64,000 nucleotides of DNA from contig OZ024763.1 of the NCBI GenBank assembly GCA_964016885.1, positions 22,196,001-22,260,000 of the forward strand. The letters are read 5' to 3'. How positions within the stretch are numbered: the stretch's first letter is position 1; every line of letters starts with the position of its first letter. This DNA comes from Eledone cirrhosa. Its lineage: Eukaryota. Positions 13,891 to 55,412 of this stretch are shown here, piece after piece. The position numbers and the translations under genes are program-made. The notes beneath the pieces are model-generated. The model made no database searches. It was not told where the DNA came from and saw only the letters and a list, made by a program, of their open reading frames with translations.

Positions 13891-14045
13891 GAGAGAGATT
13901 TTGAGTTTATGTTGGTTGTAAACCAACACCTCAGTATGCAGGCTGGAGCACTCGACGAAGTGCGCAGGTTGGTTTGGTTACTCCGGAGTAGTGTAAAATA
14001 AAGTTAAATAAAAGTCAAATGATTAAAATTTAGCTTTGTTTATTA

Positions 14046-14098
14046 CTGCTATATATATTTCAGTGACAGCCATCTTTGGCTGTGACCTCTTCAGGCAG
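14046..14098 (-). ncRNA. Type I hammerhead ribozyme motif
   Basis: Reverse complement of 14328-14380. Confidence 0.75.
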
Positions 14099-14327
14099 TT
14101 TGAATTAGTATGGTATAGACAAGTACATATGTTGTTTAGGTGTATGATATTGTCAATACTCTGATATGCCCAGTTCCTTGTTGGGTTGTTAATTCACTGA
14201 GTGAATTGTTGGGTTGTTAATTCACTCAGTGAATTAACAACCTAACAAGGAACTGGGCATATCAGAGTATTGACAATATCATACACCTAAACAACATATG
14301 TACTTGTCTATACCATACTAATTCAAA

Positions 14328-14380
14328 CTGCCTGAAGAGGTCACAGCCAAAGATGGCTGTCACTGAAATATATATAGCAG
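14328..14380 (+). ncRNA. Type I hammerhead ribozyme motif
   Basis: CTGC-CTGAAGA-GGTCACAGCCA/AAGA/TGGCTGTCACT-GAAA-TATATA-TA-GCAG, with AATAAA at 14382. Confidence 0.8.
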
Positions 14381-14983
14381 TAATAAACGAAGCTAAATTT
14401 TAATCATTTGACTTTTATTTAACTTTATATATATATATATATATATATATACATACATACATATATACATATACATATATATATACATACATACATACAT
14501 ACATACATATATACATATACATAAATATATATATACATACATATATACATATATATATATACATATTTCGTTTCTGAATTTGTTTAGCAAGATTCTTTAT
14601 CTGAAATCGTGTGTTGAAACCGATATTGTTATACCTTGGGAGGGTCATGTTGCCAATAAGAAACACACGCACCAGCTGCCCTCACTTCAATTTATTATAT
14701 ATTTATAAATTTATAAATTTACAAATCTACAAATTTATAAATGTCTGGTTGGTTGGTTGGTTCCACAACCAGATAGTTGTTTATATATAGTCATAGTCCT
14801 TTCGTCACACACTCTGTGACCTCCTCAGTGACTGGGGATTCCTTTCTTTGTTTCTGTGCCTTTCCTTTCTTCTGTCCTACGCCATTTTGTTTCAAAATGG
14901 CGTAGGACAGAAGAAAGGTATAACAATATATATACATACATATATATATATATATATATATATATATACATACATATATATAT

Positions 14984-15316
14984 GGAGGCACATGGCTTAG
15001 TGGTTAGAGCATTGGCCTTGCAATCGAAAGGTTGTGAGTTCAATTCTCAGACCGGGTGATGTGTTGTTTCCTTGAGCAAGACACTTTATTTCACATTGCT
15101 CCAGTTTACTCAGCTGTAGAAATGAGATGATAGGGACTGGGGTCCATATCATTCCACTGCAAAGTGGTCGTGCAGGTGCCACGGCAAAAAAGCACCCAGC
15201 ACTCACTGTAAATGAGGTTGGTGTTAGGAAGGGCATCCAGCTGTAGAAATCAAGCCAAAATCAGTTCCCGTCCCACCCTTGCAAGCAGGGAAAAAGCGGA
15301 AATGATGAATGATGAT
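14984..15316 (+). mobile_element. tRNA-derived SINE with an RTE-type tail
   Basis: A box TGGCTTAGTGG and B box GAGTTCAATTC; core CCTTGAGCAAGACACTT; GTTAGGAAGGGCATCCAGCTGTAGAAA; tail matches RTE 31531-31588. Confidence 0.9.
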
Positions 15317-15394
15317 ACATATATATATATACATACATATATATATATATATATATACATACATATATATATATATATACATACATATATATAT

Positions 15395-15500
15395 AACGGA
15401 GGAAATGTGGTAAGGAACCAGGTGGACCATAACGCACCAAAGTACTCAATACTTAGGGTAGTAGAGTGGGTAATAGGAACGAGTAGGACCCCGACGGCTA
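15395..15500 (-). mobile_element. Family C pLTR tail fragment
   Basis: Homologous to 24745-24845 and 55211-55312. Confidence 0.7.
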
Positions 15501-16659
15501 ATTCTGGACTAAATGAAAATTTTTATCCTGGTATTTGAATAGCCGAGCTTCTCAATTCCATATATGGTAAAAGTGATTGTCACAAGGATTGGTCAAAAGT
15601 TTGTTGTTGAGACATAATAATTCTATCATGGCAATTTGTGGAGGGAAGGGGTAGCTGAACCCGCCAGTAGGAGAAAGAGGGAGAGGGTGTGGAGGAGACC
15701 CAGTCATGCGTTGATAGTGCCGACTACAGCTGGGCATGAGGTCAAAGAAGATACTAGGGAGGGGGAGGAAGTCGAAACAATAAGTAAAACAATATGGGGT
15801 AAATATATAGAAAAATACCGAGAGTGTTAAAAAGCAATTAAATGTAAAAAAAAAAATAAATAAACAATTTCTGGTTACTACGACCTAAGGACAGCTATCA
15901 AGTCTCTCACTGGTACTGCTAGGCTAAAGGAAGGTTTACTAGGTGGGACGGAATTATAATGAGACCCTTTTAAGAGGTATAAGTAATAAACCGAGTATAT
16001 CTTACGGTGACGGGTCAACAAGTGAGGGGCCAAAATACTAAAGAAACTACCACGAAATAATAAATAAAGGTTTCTACCCCAGGCACAAGGCCAGCAACCA
16101 CCCAGTGCAAAAAAATAAACTAATACGAAATAATAATTCAGAATCCCGAAAAAGAATACTAATACTATCTCTAAGGGTGCCGCCACGATACAAAAATTCT
16201 AGTGCAAACTACATAAATGCTCGTACGAAGTATATGTAAAATTTGATACGGAAAATTAATTCAGAATCCCCCCCCCCCCCCAAATACTGATATACGAGAA
16301 ATTAAAGCAAAGATACCACTAAGAAATATAGAAAGCACGGAAAAGGGGCAGCGATCGGATAGGAAGGCAAGTATCCGGGGTCTAATACATCTGCTATAAA
16401 AAGCGGAGTCAGCCAAATCTATCATAGAATAGGGGAAGCGGTGGGGGTACTGAGGCTACACAGGACCGAGGGGCTGCCTCGGGTGGGCGAGAAAATGAAA
16501 AGGACGACAAAGAAAGAGAGCTGGGGTGGAAGGACTAGGGAGGGATGGGGGGAAGAAGGAAATATAGAGGAAGCGATAAAAAGATATAAAAGAAGATCTT
16601 ACGTCTACCTTTGCAAGCAGGGGTTACCCATTACAAAATCGGCAAGTGGGGTGTTATAG

Positions 16660-52377: not shown

Positions 52378-52624
52378 TCTAGCTATATAAGTATACTGAA
52401 CCAGGTTTGACCTAGGGTTAAACAACAACAACAACAACAGACTATTTTATCTCAAAATGACCTCATTGATTAAAATTTATTTCAATCAGCTGTAAGGAAA
52501 CAAACAATTTGTGGTGTGTGTGTAGTGTGTGTAGTGTATGGTGTGTGTGTGTGTCTCCCTCTGGTGTGTGTGTGTGTGTTGTTTGTTCTTTTTTTAAGAA
52601 ATAAAAGCTTGCACCAAACAAAAA

Positions 52625-53170
52625 TGATGAAAGGAAAAAAGAGAAGTGATGAGAATAAGAGAGAAGAATGAGATGAAGAGAGAGAGAATAATAGAGAAGA
52701 GAGATGGTGATTAGAGAGAAGGAAGGATGGTGAAGATGTGAGAAAGAAGAGAGATGAAGATGTGAGAGAGAAGAGAGATGAAAATGTGAGAAAGAAAAGA
52801 GACAATAAGAGAGTAGAGAGATGAAGATGTGAGAGAGAAGAGAGATGAAAATGCGAGAAAGAAAAGAGACAATAAGAGAGAAGAGAGATGAAGATGTGGG
52901 AGAGAAGAGAGATGAAGAGAGATGAAGATGTGGGAGAGAAGAGAGATGAAAATGTGAGAAAGAAAAGAGACAATAAGAGAGTAGAGAGATGAAGATGCGA
53001 GAGAGAAGAGAGATGAAAATGTGAGAAAGAAAAGAGACAATAAGAGAGTAGAGAGAAGAAGAGAAGAGAGAAGAATGAAATGAAGAGAGAGAATAAGAGA
53101 TGAGATGTAGAGAGAGAGAAAGAATAAAAGGGAGAGGAGAGATGGTGAGGTTGTGAGAAAGAAGAGAGAC
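52625..53170. repeat. Purine-rich GA repeat with a higher-order unit of about 70 bp
   Basis: Direct reading of the sequence. Confidence 0.85.
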
Positions 53171-53199
53171 AAGAACCTATGTTAACTAACAAGGTTGAA

Positions 53200-54365
53200 A
53201 CAACACCTACTACTACTACTATAGCTGTTATTACCACTATAGCTACTACAACTACTACTACAGCTACTACTACTACTACAGCTACTACTACTACTACAGC
53301 TACTACTACTACTACTACTACTACTACTAGCACTACTACTACTACTACTACACTACTACTACTACTACAGTTACTACAACTACTACTACAGCTACTACTA
53401 CTACAGCTACCACTACCACTATTAATACGACAACTGCCACCACTACACCATTACCACTACTAATACTACCACTGTTACTACCATTTCTAATACCACTACC
53501 ACCACTGATACTACCACCAATACTACTACTATAACTGCTATGACCAGTACTACTACCACCAATATTACTATCACTACTACGACTACCCCATTACCACTAC
53601 TACCACCACCACTACCACCACCACTACTATTACCACTGTTACTACCACCACTACCACCACTACCACCACCACTACTATTACCACTGTTACTACCACCACT
53701 ACCACCACTACTACTACCACTGCTACAACCACCACCACCACCAACACTATTACCACCACCACCACTACTACTACCACTGCTACTACCACCAACACTACTA
53801 CTACCACTGCTACTACCACCACCACCACTACCACCACTACTACTACCACTGCTACAACCACCACCACCACCACTACTACCACCACCACCACCACTACCAC
53901 TGCTACTACCACCACCACCACTACTACTACCACCACCACCACCACGACCACTACTACTACCACCACCACCACCACGACCACTACTACCACCACCACCACC
54001 ACGACCACTACTACTACCACCACCACCACCACTACTACTACCACCACCACCACCACGACCACTACTACTACTACCACCACCACCACCACCACTACTACCA
54101 CCACCACCACCACCACGACCACTACCACCACCACCACCACCACTACTACTACCACCACCACCACCACCACCACCACCACCACTACCACCACCACCACCAC
54201 CACCACCACTACTACCACCACCACCACCACGACCACTACTACTACCACCACCACCACCACCACTACTACTACCACCACCACCACCACGACCACTACTACT
54301 ACCACCACCACCACGACTACTACCACCACCACCACCACCACCACTTCTACTACCATTATTACTGC
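53200..54365. repeat. (ACT)n/(ACC)n trinucleotide array
   Basis: Direct reading of the sequence. Confidence 0.95.
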
Positions 54366-54886
54366 TGCTGCTACATTAAAGCTTACATTTTATTGATTGT
54401 TTCAGCTGAGCACAAATTCAAATTTTTTTTTATTGAGGGCGGGGTTAGGGGGGAGATGGAGGGTAAGATATCACCATCACCACTACCACTGATACCATCA
54501 CCACCACTGCTACCATACCATCACCATCACCACTACCACCACCACCACTCCTACAACCACCACCATCCCTACAACCACCACAACTACTACTACCACTCCA
54601 ACAACATCAGCATCTTCATCACCACCACCTTGTTTATGTCCCATAAATGTTACATGCTACGCCCCCCCCCCCCACTCCTTCACACCTACACCTGCCCACA
54701 AACCAGTTGGTATTTGAACTTGAAATCTAGAGAGAGAGAGCAGGAGACAGATGAACTGAGAGTAGCATTAGAGGGGGTTACACTTAAATAAATACTGCTA
54801 CACACACACACACACACACACACACACACACACACACACACACACACACACACACACACACATACATACATATACATATATATATA

Positions 54887-55158
54887 TCATCATCATCATC
54901 ATTTTACGTCCACTTTTCCCTGCTTGCAAGGGTGGGACGGGAACTGATTCTGGCTTGATTTCTACAGCTGGATGCCCTTCCTAACACCAACCTCATTTAC
55001 AGTGAGTGCTGGGTGCTTTTTTGCCGTGGCACCTCCACGACCACTTTGCAGTGGAATGATAGGGACCCCAGTCCCTATCATCTCATTTCTACAGCTGAGT
55101 AAACTGGAGCAATGTGAAATAAAGTGTCTTGCTCAAGGAAACAACACATCACCCAGTC
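54887..55158 (-). mobile_element. SINE (family of 14984), head truncated
   Basis: Near-identical body and tail. Confidence 0.85.
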
Positions 55159-55210
55159 TGTATATATTTTATCAAATGATTCTATGGACTTACTTTCTTA
55201 TATATATATA

Positions 55211-55412
55211 AGAAAGAAAGTGTGGTAAGAAACCAGGTGAACCATAACACACCAGGGTACTCGATACTTAGGGTACTAGAGTGGGTAATAGGAAAAGAGT
55301 CACGACCCCGATGGCTGAGCTCCGGCAGTTTTGACAGCTAGATCCGAACTGTTCAGACCTAGCTGTCGAAACGGCCGGAGCTCAGCCGTCGGGGTGCTGA
55401 CTCTTTTCCTAT
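55211..55412. mobile_element. Family C fold-back of HHR 3' halves with tail
   Basis: Hairpin 55288-55412; GAAA-CGGCCGGAGCTCAGCCG-TC-GGGG. Confidence 0.7.

Follow-up and report, generated by a model that had tools for sequence, protein, structure and literature searches.

The window analysed here, 64,000 nucleotides of Eledone cirrhosa DNA (GenBank assembly GCA_964016885.1, contig OZ024763.1, positions 22,196,001 to 22,260,000 of the forward strand), holds hammerhead-bearing ends (pseudo-long terminal repeats, pLTRs) of Penelope-like elements (PLEs) of the Hydra clade. The form of these ends can be understood if the element RNA carries a doubled signal. In full-length copies the stretch between hammerhead and start codon contains a predicted hairpin twice over, and we think it likely that each copy is bound by the element's protein and sets the start of reverse transcription a few bases 5′ of itself. 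The balance tips slightly towards a further step, programmed twin priming: a dimeric reverse transcriptase (RT)-endonuclease would sit on the two tandem hairpins, the (TA)n target would be cut on both strands, and one cDNA would be made from each DNA end.

The point of departure was a first-pass annotation that had singled out the word TCGAGYRC downstream of hammerheads in several families. All eight 10-mers quoted for it are present in the window, each at its position and on its strand. As a free-standing linear word it does not hold up; it is instead the 3′ strand of a predicted base-paired, bulged hairpin of the form RCUC-Y(n)R-UH-GAGY-RC, with 4–60 nt between the halves. The ACACT or CCACT said to precede it does reflect a genuine upstream element, but the true form of that element is RCTCY, the pairing partner of the motif. 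A better consensus for the motif is R-T-H-GAG-Y-R-C-T. Context-defined copies read TTGAG in 23 cases, TCGAG in 5 and TCAAG in none; TTGAG is an inherited form, not the result of CpG decay alone.

The genome is 3.0 Gb and TA-rich. It was scanned throughout for TCGAGYRC lying 35–64 nt before (TA)5, with the reversed pattern as a like-for-like control: 16,758 plus-strand matches stand against 960 (from the listing, these figures appear to count once per motif, and further columns of 80,427 and 4,944 several times per TA run). When both arms are specified, the paired ACTCC..GTCGAGT occurs 16,304 times (control, 352) and the paired GCTCY..GAGC 1,580 times (control, 328); the A.C-mismatched ACTCY..GAGC is not enriched (892 against 747, mostly an unrelated repeat), and a C.A closing mismatch (1,066 against 72) is 15-fold rarer than C-G. 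The unrelated repeat is a 16-nt tandem repeat containing TCGAGCAC (for example C1:32149499 and 32152329; L143, L155), which dominates the ACTCY..GAGC matches and is often paired about 4 kb apart, like the two LTRs of another element; it was set aside.

Pairing was also examined per family, with only those loci that had not been chosen for pairing (anchor-only clusters). The hairpin fold appears in 19 of 36 such clusters, against a shuffled mean of 2.0 and a maximum of 7 in 300 shuffles; multi-copy clusters fold in 8 of 9 cases, and clusters away from TA in 11 of 59, several of these from the same families. Native inner stems average 2.34 bp and those with swapped partners 1.20 bp (0 of 5,000 permutations); a pair count on one alignment (A4) used hand-picked hairpins and is illustrative only. 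A GTTC/GAAC variant at 41635 alters a further outer pair. Known RNA families do not account for the fold: Rfam covariance models gave one match in 34540–34843, with an E value of 1.1 and far below its gathering score, and in the whole window the 150 matches listed, of 557, all fell below gathering scores and were mostly microsatellites or inverted repeats.

The tie to hammerheads was measured in a sample of 1.064 Mb, made up of the window, 8 flanking pieces and 92 pieces of 10 kb taken at even intervals, in which a descriptor found 102 hammerhead-like matches, against 1 on the reversed sequence. This is about one hammerhead-like motif per 10 kb, which extrapolates to some 300,000 genome-wide with a descriptor that misses long-stem-III forms. 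Positional and strand enrichment is evident: 23 sense motifs lie at +50 to +149 nt from the cleavage site and none in the 300 nt upstream, with 3 antisense motifs at +50 to +149. The spacing first given, 45–135 nt, was a fair one, the observed range being 56–132 nt by the descriptor and about 43 nt by eye in the two families whose long-stem-III hammerheads it misses. The association is looser at individual sites, as an intact hammerhead is present at only two of the eight in the window (34756 and 13955); of the other six, the GAAA is mutated in one, its half is missing from another, and four retain the hammerhead 3′ half only. Following the 102 sampled hammerheads, the motif comes next in 22, (TA)n comes first in 54, and neither is found in 26. 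These data support a conserved cis element tied to hammerhead-bearing ends.

The hammerhead is nevertheless not the fixed anchor of the motif: the insertion end lies mostly 5–11 nt 5′ of the motif, whereas the distance to the hammerhead ranges from 43 to 132 nt. Among 3′ termini on (TA)n from evenly spaced genome samples, 70 of 75 fall between −3 and 15 nt 5′ of a hairpin start, 59 of the 75 at 5–11 nt; TAT/ATA sites in the references are so placed in only 59 of 349 cases, and 5′ boundaries are not enriched near hairpins (2 of 25). The 70 linked termini comprise 28 at the first hairpin, 40 at a second one further on, and 2 in a reference with a single known hairpin. Taken as an indirect mark of the cDNA start, the genomic ends in these 70 of 75 cases keep the fixed position relative to the hairpin that is expected of an RNA element for RT initiation. 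The relation also holds in the forward direction. Hammerhead ends without the motif (54) were traced into other copies; 4 had no continuation, and 37 distinct continuations, representing about a dozen families and not independent cases, have a hairpin 3–11 nt on in 26 instances, with 1 misaligned. Where two pLTRs on one contig could be compared in other hosts, they diverge 0–6 nt before a hairpin in 8 of 9 pairs. For one hammerhead family with an ACTAGT stem III (L064, L066, L074, L078, L254, L274), no true continuation was found, and hence no hairpin past the end. That family is abundant and ends about 126 nt after cleavage, with a GTTC..GAAC look-alike right after the cleavage site; at L078 an inverted copy abuts a Hydra-like open reading frame (ORF).

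Full-length copies carry the second hairpin just past the usual 3′ end. The two-hairpin pattern was predicted and then scanned for, and gave 1,415 matches against 142 in the control, tandem arrays included. The order within the element is hammerhead, hairpin 1, a UA-rich stretch designated End B, hairpin 2, and, 14–63 nt later and in mixed frames, the ATG; End A is the corresponding UA-rich stretch 5′ of hairpin 1, as End B is 5′ of hairpin 2. Several other accounts of the conserved letters were considered and rejected: coding conservation (IEH/VEC-like codons), as hairpin 2 lies 14–63 nt from the ATG in all three frames; a conserved 3′ splice site, as the AG is preceded by T or A according to family, with no conserved YAG; and, from recall, a Pol III B-box and an MTE-like promoter word, whose spacing and letters do not fit.

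The arrangement extends beyond Eledone. Among marine-metagenome relatives (78 loci, 33 with the 5′ region), the hairpin is found in 29 of the 33, with 63 sense matches against 3, 4 and 2 in controls. Counted by family, one hairpin or more occurs in 21 of 23 and two occur in 15 of 23, at about −83 to −105 and −17 to −41 from the estimated start. In 56 non-redundant metagenome anchors the closing pair is T-A in 18 and C-G in 32, and the bulge TT in 39, TC in 10, TA in 7 and TG in none. Among the published Hydra consensi, as far as the available text of the supplement goes (PMC8557442), the hairpin is clear by eye in three of the six (one family from a coral and two from sea cucumbers), and one of these carries both copies. 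THGAGYRCT occurs 9 times in that text, where line breaks may hide others: 4 matches are Hydra ends, and the remaining 5 precede the Hydra file, lie in sequence that looks coding and have no evident partner. Viral sequences, scanned with too narrow a pattern, gave no hairpin match.

Mirrored insertions use both sites. The 83 head-to-head pairs found between TA runs (allowed up to 4.5 kb, so that a few may be separate events) comprise 73 A/B (one row duplicated), 2 B/B, 1 A/A and 7 with an unassigned end; in sampled loci only, the figures are 32 A/B, 1 A/A, 0 B/B and 7 with an unassigned end. The A/B share of 32 in 33 sampled pairs compares with 48.5% expected from the marginals (p 1.5e-9). Inversion centres vary between copies, and most are near-perfect palindromes with short spacers. 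Arm lengths were mapped in 51 pairs with long references, and 33 junctions were resolved: 15 are symmetric within 2 nt, arm A is longer in 13 and arm B in 5. Where the difference is at least 17 nt, arm A is the longer in 9 of the 33 (by 17–265 nt) and arm B in 1. In four junctions the B arm has its start at End A, and in three it is confined to the tail. The interval from End A to End B is about 63–110 nt here. Longer A arms, and B arms of these two kinds, cannot arise from the fold-back of a single cDNA, though later deletion could contribute.

A sequence of events that would generate these structures runs as follows. The RNA hairpins would be stabilised or bound by an element protein; the GIY-YIG domain would cut (TA)n on both strands; one DNA 3′ end would anneal to the UA stretch before hairpin 2, the other to that before hairpin 1; two RTs, probably a dimer, would copy inwards; and the two cDNAs would be joined in the middle by microhomology or end joining. 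Two-ended priming would therefore yield head-to-head pLTRs with a one-sided tail, the tail being the End A to End B interval. Hairpin 2 would not be copied at End B, and hairpin 1 would be copied by the End-B arm only, which is why the motif is seen 40–90 nt before TA. The first-pass annotation had offered an internal promoter or an RT/endonuclease recognition site; the latter is the best reading, and a promoter is unlikely given the covarying stem of variable length.

The main rival, which we regard as unlikely, supposes that the endonuclease reads the hairpins on DNA. That is, a longer cDNA, or a tandem or circular intermediate, would be cut 5–11 nt 5′ of each hairpin and the cut ends joined to (TA)n, so that the ends mark cleavage, not initiation. 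The tail has been ascribed to endonuclease-mediated resolution in the available part of PMC8557442; the endonuclease of Drosophila Penelope needed the tail to cut plasmids, as recounted in the accessible text of PMC11167929; and the end-distance data fit DNA cleavage equally well, with wobble pairs giving no clue to the strand. However, inner stems of 4–60 nt whose changes compensate for each other imply folding as a single strand and not a site in duplex DNA; in 4 of 33 junctions the B arm starts precisely at End A, as expected from a second primer annealed there; and the tail boundaries of a Poseidon PLE in vitro coincide with RT starts (PMC11167929, in the part available). A quite improbable alternative keeps one start and lets a single copy snap back, prime itself and extend to End A, with hairpin 1 as the stop; self-priming has been proposed, on an antisense template (PMC3846280, from the portion available). 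The near-palindromic centres and the symmetric junctions speak for it, yet fold-back cannot make arm A longer than arm B, as it is in nine cases against one of the reverse; three B arms exclude End A entirely; and the same hairpin would need to begin copying at one site and end it at the other.

Two further explanations take the hairpin for a signal of another kind. It might be an internal Pol II promoter element or a 5′-leader signal for translation or splicing: both hairpins lie in the 5′ leader, hairpin 2 just before the ATG, and for Drosophila Penelope both an internal promoter and an intron at the 5′ end are described (PMC2377424, in the part available). The 4–60 nt spacer between the halves, covarying as a stem, makes this very improbable, and it does not account for the tight link to insertion ends or for the A/B pairing. 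Finally, R-U-H resembles the NUH cleavage triplet, the bulge is always UH (UG in 0 of 56), and the hairpin lies downstream of the hammerhead on the same strand, so it could be a structural helper or trans-substrate of the ribozyme. We give this almost no credence, as the hammerheads observed have stem I arms that do not match GAGYRC as its complement, the distance to the hammerhead varies from 43 to 132 nt, and the ends lie 5′ of the hairpin, not at the bulge.

Several observations weigh against hairpin-directed twin priming. Its evidence consists of genomic sequence and predicted folds. The genome-wide pairing counts are dominated by a few large families; for this reason pairing was tested per family as well, and there 17 of the 36 anchor-only clusters failed the fold test. 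The fold is weak: outer-helix probability exceeds 0.6 in only 11 of 22 natural hairpins, RNAalifold retains only the 4-bp outer helix, and three of its four pairs hardly vary, leaving little covariation there. Wobble pairs do not indicate the strand (G-U 4 and C-A 4; 6 and 5 in other hosts), so the fold may belong to single-stranded DNA or to the antisense strand. A first mapping of the ends gave 63 of 80, after which one mutated reference was replaced, one was dropped and one hairpin was set by hand; 10 of the 37 continuations of motif-less ends have no hairpin. Of the 51 mapped junctions 18 were unresolved, the 15 symmetric ones are also expected from fold-back, and later deletions in palindromes could mimic arm asymmetry. 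The consensi Hydra-1_Obim and Hydra-1_Amil show no hairpin in the available supplement of PMC8557442, and copepod Hydra-1_Crog only divergent forms; by eye, the Hydra-1_Amil consensus ends about 4 nt before the start of hairpin 1 in the related L367, and it would then lack the hairpin because it ends that much too early. Lastly, the 96-nt start region shown for the Poseidon PLE lacks the RCUC/GAGY motif (PMC11167929, in the part available).

The families that bear the motif, described at first as unrelated, are related: families a, b, d and e of the window were traced to Hydra-type ORFs, and on sequence grounds all motif-bearing families are classed as pLTRs of Hydra-clade PLEs. Families b, d, e, t, n and k run, in full-length copies, into ORFs about 44–53% identical to the window PLE over the RT; families c, h, g, q and s yielded no full-length partner. 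The marks of the clade given in the available text of PMC8557442 are RWK, DKT, CxCx5C and the lack of CCHH. Here RWK/RWR occurs near the N-terminus, and DKG is changed to DKT, in the same 7 of 7 aligned ORFs that reach that region; the CxCx5C linker precedes the C-terminal GIY-YIG in 4 of 4 ORFs that reach it; and CxxC plus CxH near the C-terminus was seen by eye in L013 and L321, with no CCHH. Pfam gave no significant domain match for the PLE ORFs, the GIY-YIG assignment being of motifs by eye, and likeness to the published Hydra proteins was likewise judged by eye, from the supplement text. A canonical hammerhead in the pLTR and a (TA)n target are present, as in the Hydra clade; the window copy is 3.25 kb, the L013 ORF 911 aa and the family e ORF 719 aa, beside a soft clade criterion of <3 kb.

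The family a element has its ORF in two frames (31567–33306 and 33267–34286) and at least 142 genome matches at 84–100% amino acid identity among the matches listed. In its full-length copies hairpin 2, with a TA bulge, lies 11 nt past End B, and the ATG 18 nt after hairpin 2. The features of the window are these:

31590–34843, plus strand: Hydra-clade PLE of family a, which lacks its 5′ pLTR and ends on a long run of (TA)n
34585–34630, plus strand: type I hammerhead of family a (descriptor match), with palindromic stem III and predicted cleavage after 34622; its core is presumably the U3-A8 variant
34690–34763, plus strand: hairpin 1 of family a; GCTC and 5-bp inner stem, TC bulge, GAGC, AC
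34835–34850, plus strand: End B junction of family a to (TA)n, from comparison with locus L022
13891–14425, no strand assigned: mirrored insertion of family b, whose minus arm reaches End B (13890) and whose plus arm reaches End A (14425), with a hammerhead in each arm
13948–13989, minus strand: hairpin 1 of family b; ACTC and 6-bp inner stem, TC bulge, GAGT, GC
15442–15467, minus strand: hairpin 1 of family e, with a 4-bp inner stem and a TT bulge; TA at 15395 marks the end of the element
23251–23259, plus strand: hairpin 3′ strand only, site c, with TA at 23310; the ACTC arm is lost here and present in the similar copies L058 and L253
24789–24814, minus strand: hairpin 1 of family e, with a TT bulge; End B lies at 24741 and the opposite arm stops at about 25027
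41635–41660, plus strand: variant hairpin, absent from the first-pass annotation; GTTC/GAAC (second outer pair U-A for C-G), TT bulge; a tandem copy downstream stops on TA about 8 nt before the expected start of that hairpin
42372–42407, minus strand: variant hairpin; GCTC/GAGC, TT bulge, 6-bp inner stem, TA for RC; the opposite arm stops 8 nt short of this hairpin, on TA at 43596
43902–43923, minus strand: hairpin 1 of family h, with a 3-bp inner stem and a TT bulge; the end on TA is at 43860
45608–45659, minus strand: hairpin 1 of family d; End B lies at 45562 and the opposite arm stops at about 45861
55211–55409: mirrored insertion of family e, ends B and A, holding the hairpin at 55257–55282
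55257–55282, minus strand: hairpin 1 of family e, in which a mismatch leaves an inner stem of 2 bp

The hammerhead cores of families a and e (window 34592; L282, L291) read TTGANAA instead of CTGANGA, which we take to be the known U3-A8 swap; the family e hammerhead also has an unusually long stem III. Family e occurs in tandem at L321 (C1:91.474–91.484 Mb and beyond), in at least four head-to-tail full-length copies with a period of about 3,542 bp and, in the part covered, two intact 719-aa ORFs. Satellite-like arrays with units of about 50 and 63 nt (L215–L218, C1 ~14.26 Mb; C1:81.257–81.259 Mb) derive from its hairpin-1 region, without the hammerhead. At L319, L320 and L126 there are tandem units of about 595–610 nt with a GCTC/GAGC hairpin 1, a degenerate hairpin 2 and no ORF match, which resemble a retrozyme-like non-autonomous family.

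Other elements share the window. ORFs of RTE-type LINEs were recognized by eye at 47602–50724 (minus), 29398–31566 (plus), 27946–29229 (minus) and about 827–1500 (minus), with (GAT)n tails; one is of 1,040 aa with an AP endonuclease, and one abuts the truncated PLE 5′ end at 31590. Two near-identical copies of another element (5047–5660 and about 10130–10750) have an ACTCG-TTTT-CGAGT hairpin beside TA; they give plus-strand motif matches (5068, 10154) without the bulged fold, formed a 16-member cluster in the fold test, and were set aside. A 200-base assembly gap (about 7678–7877) lies within a 12-kb TA-rich microsatellite region.

For two decades there has been no settled account of the mirrored ends and optional tail of PLEs; self-priming, resolution by the endonuclease and internal initiation have each been put forward. 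If twin priming on paired hairpins is correct, both insertion ends would be made by reverse transcription, the inverted pLTRs and one-sided tail of PLEs generally would be explained, and a minimal RNA signal would be in hand for the sister group of telomerase. A doubled hairpin of 20–30 nt predicts both ends within a few bases in many families and hosts, and is testable by mutation; it is a likely RNA ligand for structural studies of the RTs most closely related to telomerase; and it offers a simple boundary rule for annotating Hydra elements and the tens of thousands of short copies in this genome. The clade is already known; the doubled hairpin and the two-ended priming that it implies would be a new form of target-primed reverse transcription. 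No description of the hairpin or of the paired use of two starts was found in the full-text literature searched, which omits most subscription papers.

Twin priming as such is familiar from LINE-1, in which the second DNA end primes on the same RNA and produces an inversion with microhomology; there the second site is a matter of chance homology and the arms do not overlap, whereas here both sites are fixed, each with its own hairpin, and the arms usually overlap. Structured RNAs that bind an RT and fix where copying starts are known in hepatitis B virus epsilon, a bulged stem-loop, and in the R2 3′-UTR. Here, by contrast, RT binding is putative, the start lies 5′ of the hairpin instead of in its bulge, and there are two copies of the element; we claim no relation by sequence.

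Closest to the elements described here is the published Hydra clade (PMC8557442, from the text available), which shares RWK/RWR, DKT, CxCx5C and, at the C-terminus, a GIY-YIG without CCHH, as well as the canonical hammerhead, the (TA)n target, the inverted 5′-truncated partner and the one-sided tail. That account, in the part available, mentions no hairpin, second pLTR element or end rule; it gives a tail of 30–40 bp for Naiads, against about 63–110 nt here, and a clade length of "generally <3 kb", against 3.25 kb for the window copy. The Poseidon PLE of Anolis (PAc; PMC11167929, likewise from the available text) differs in that its starts lie inside the ORF, in an AC-rich stem-loop, and neither a duplicated signal nor paired use of starts in one insertion is reported there. 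It has in common with the present elements two internal RT starts bounding the tail, the cutting and extension of both strands, a need for RNA around and 3′ of the hammerhead, and a predicted dimer; its behaviour in vitro fits a mechanism with two starts.

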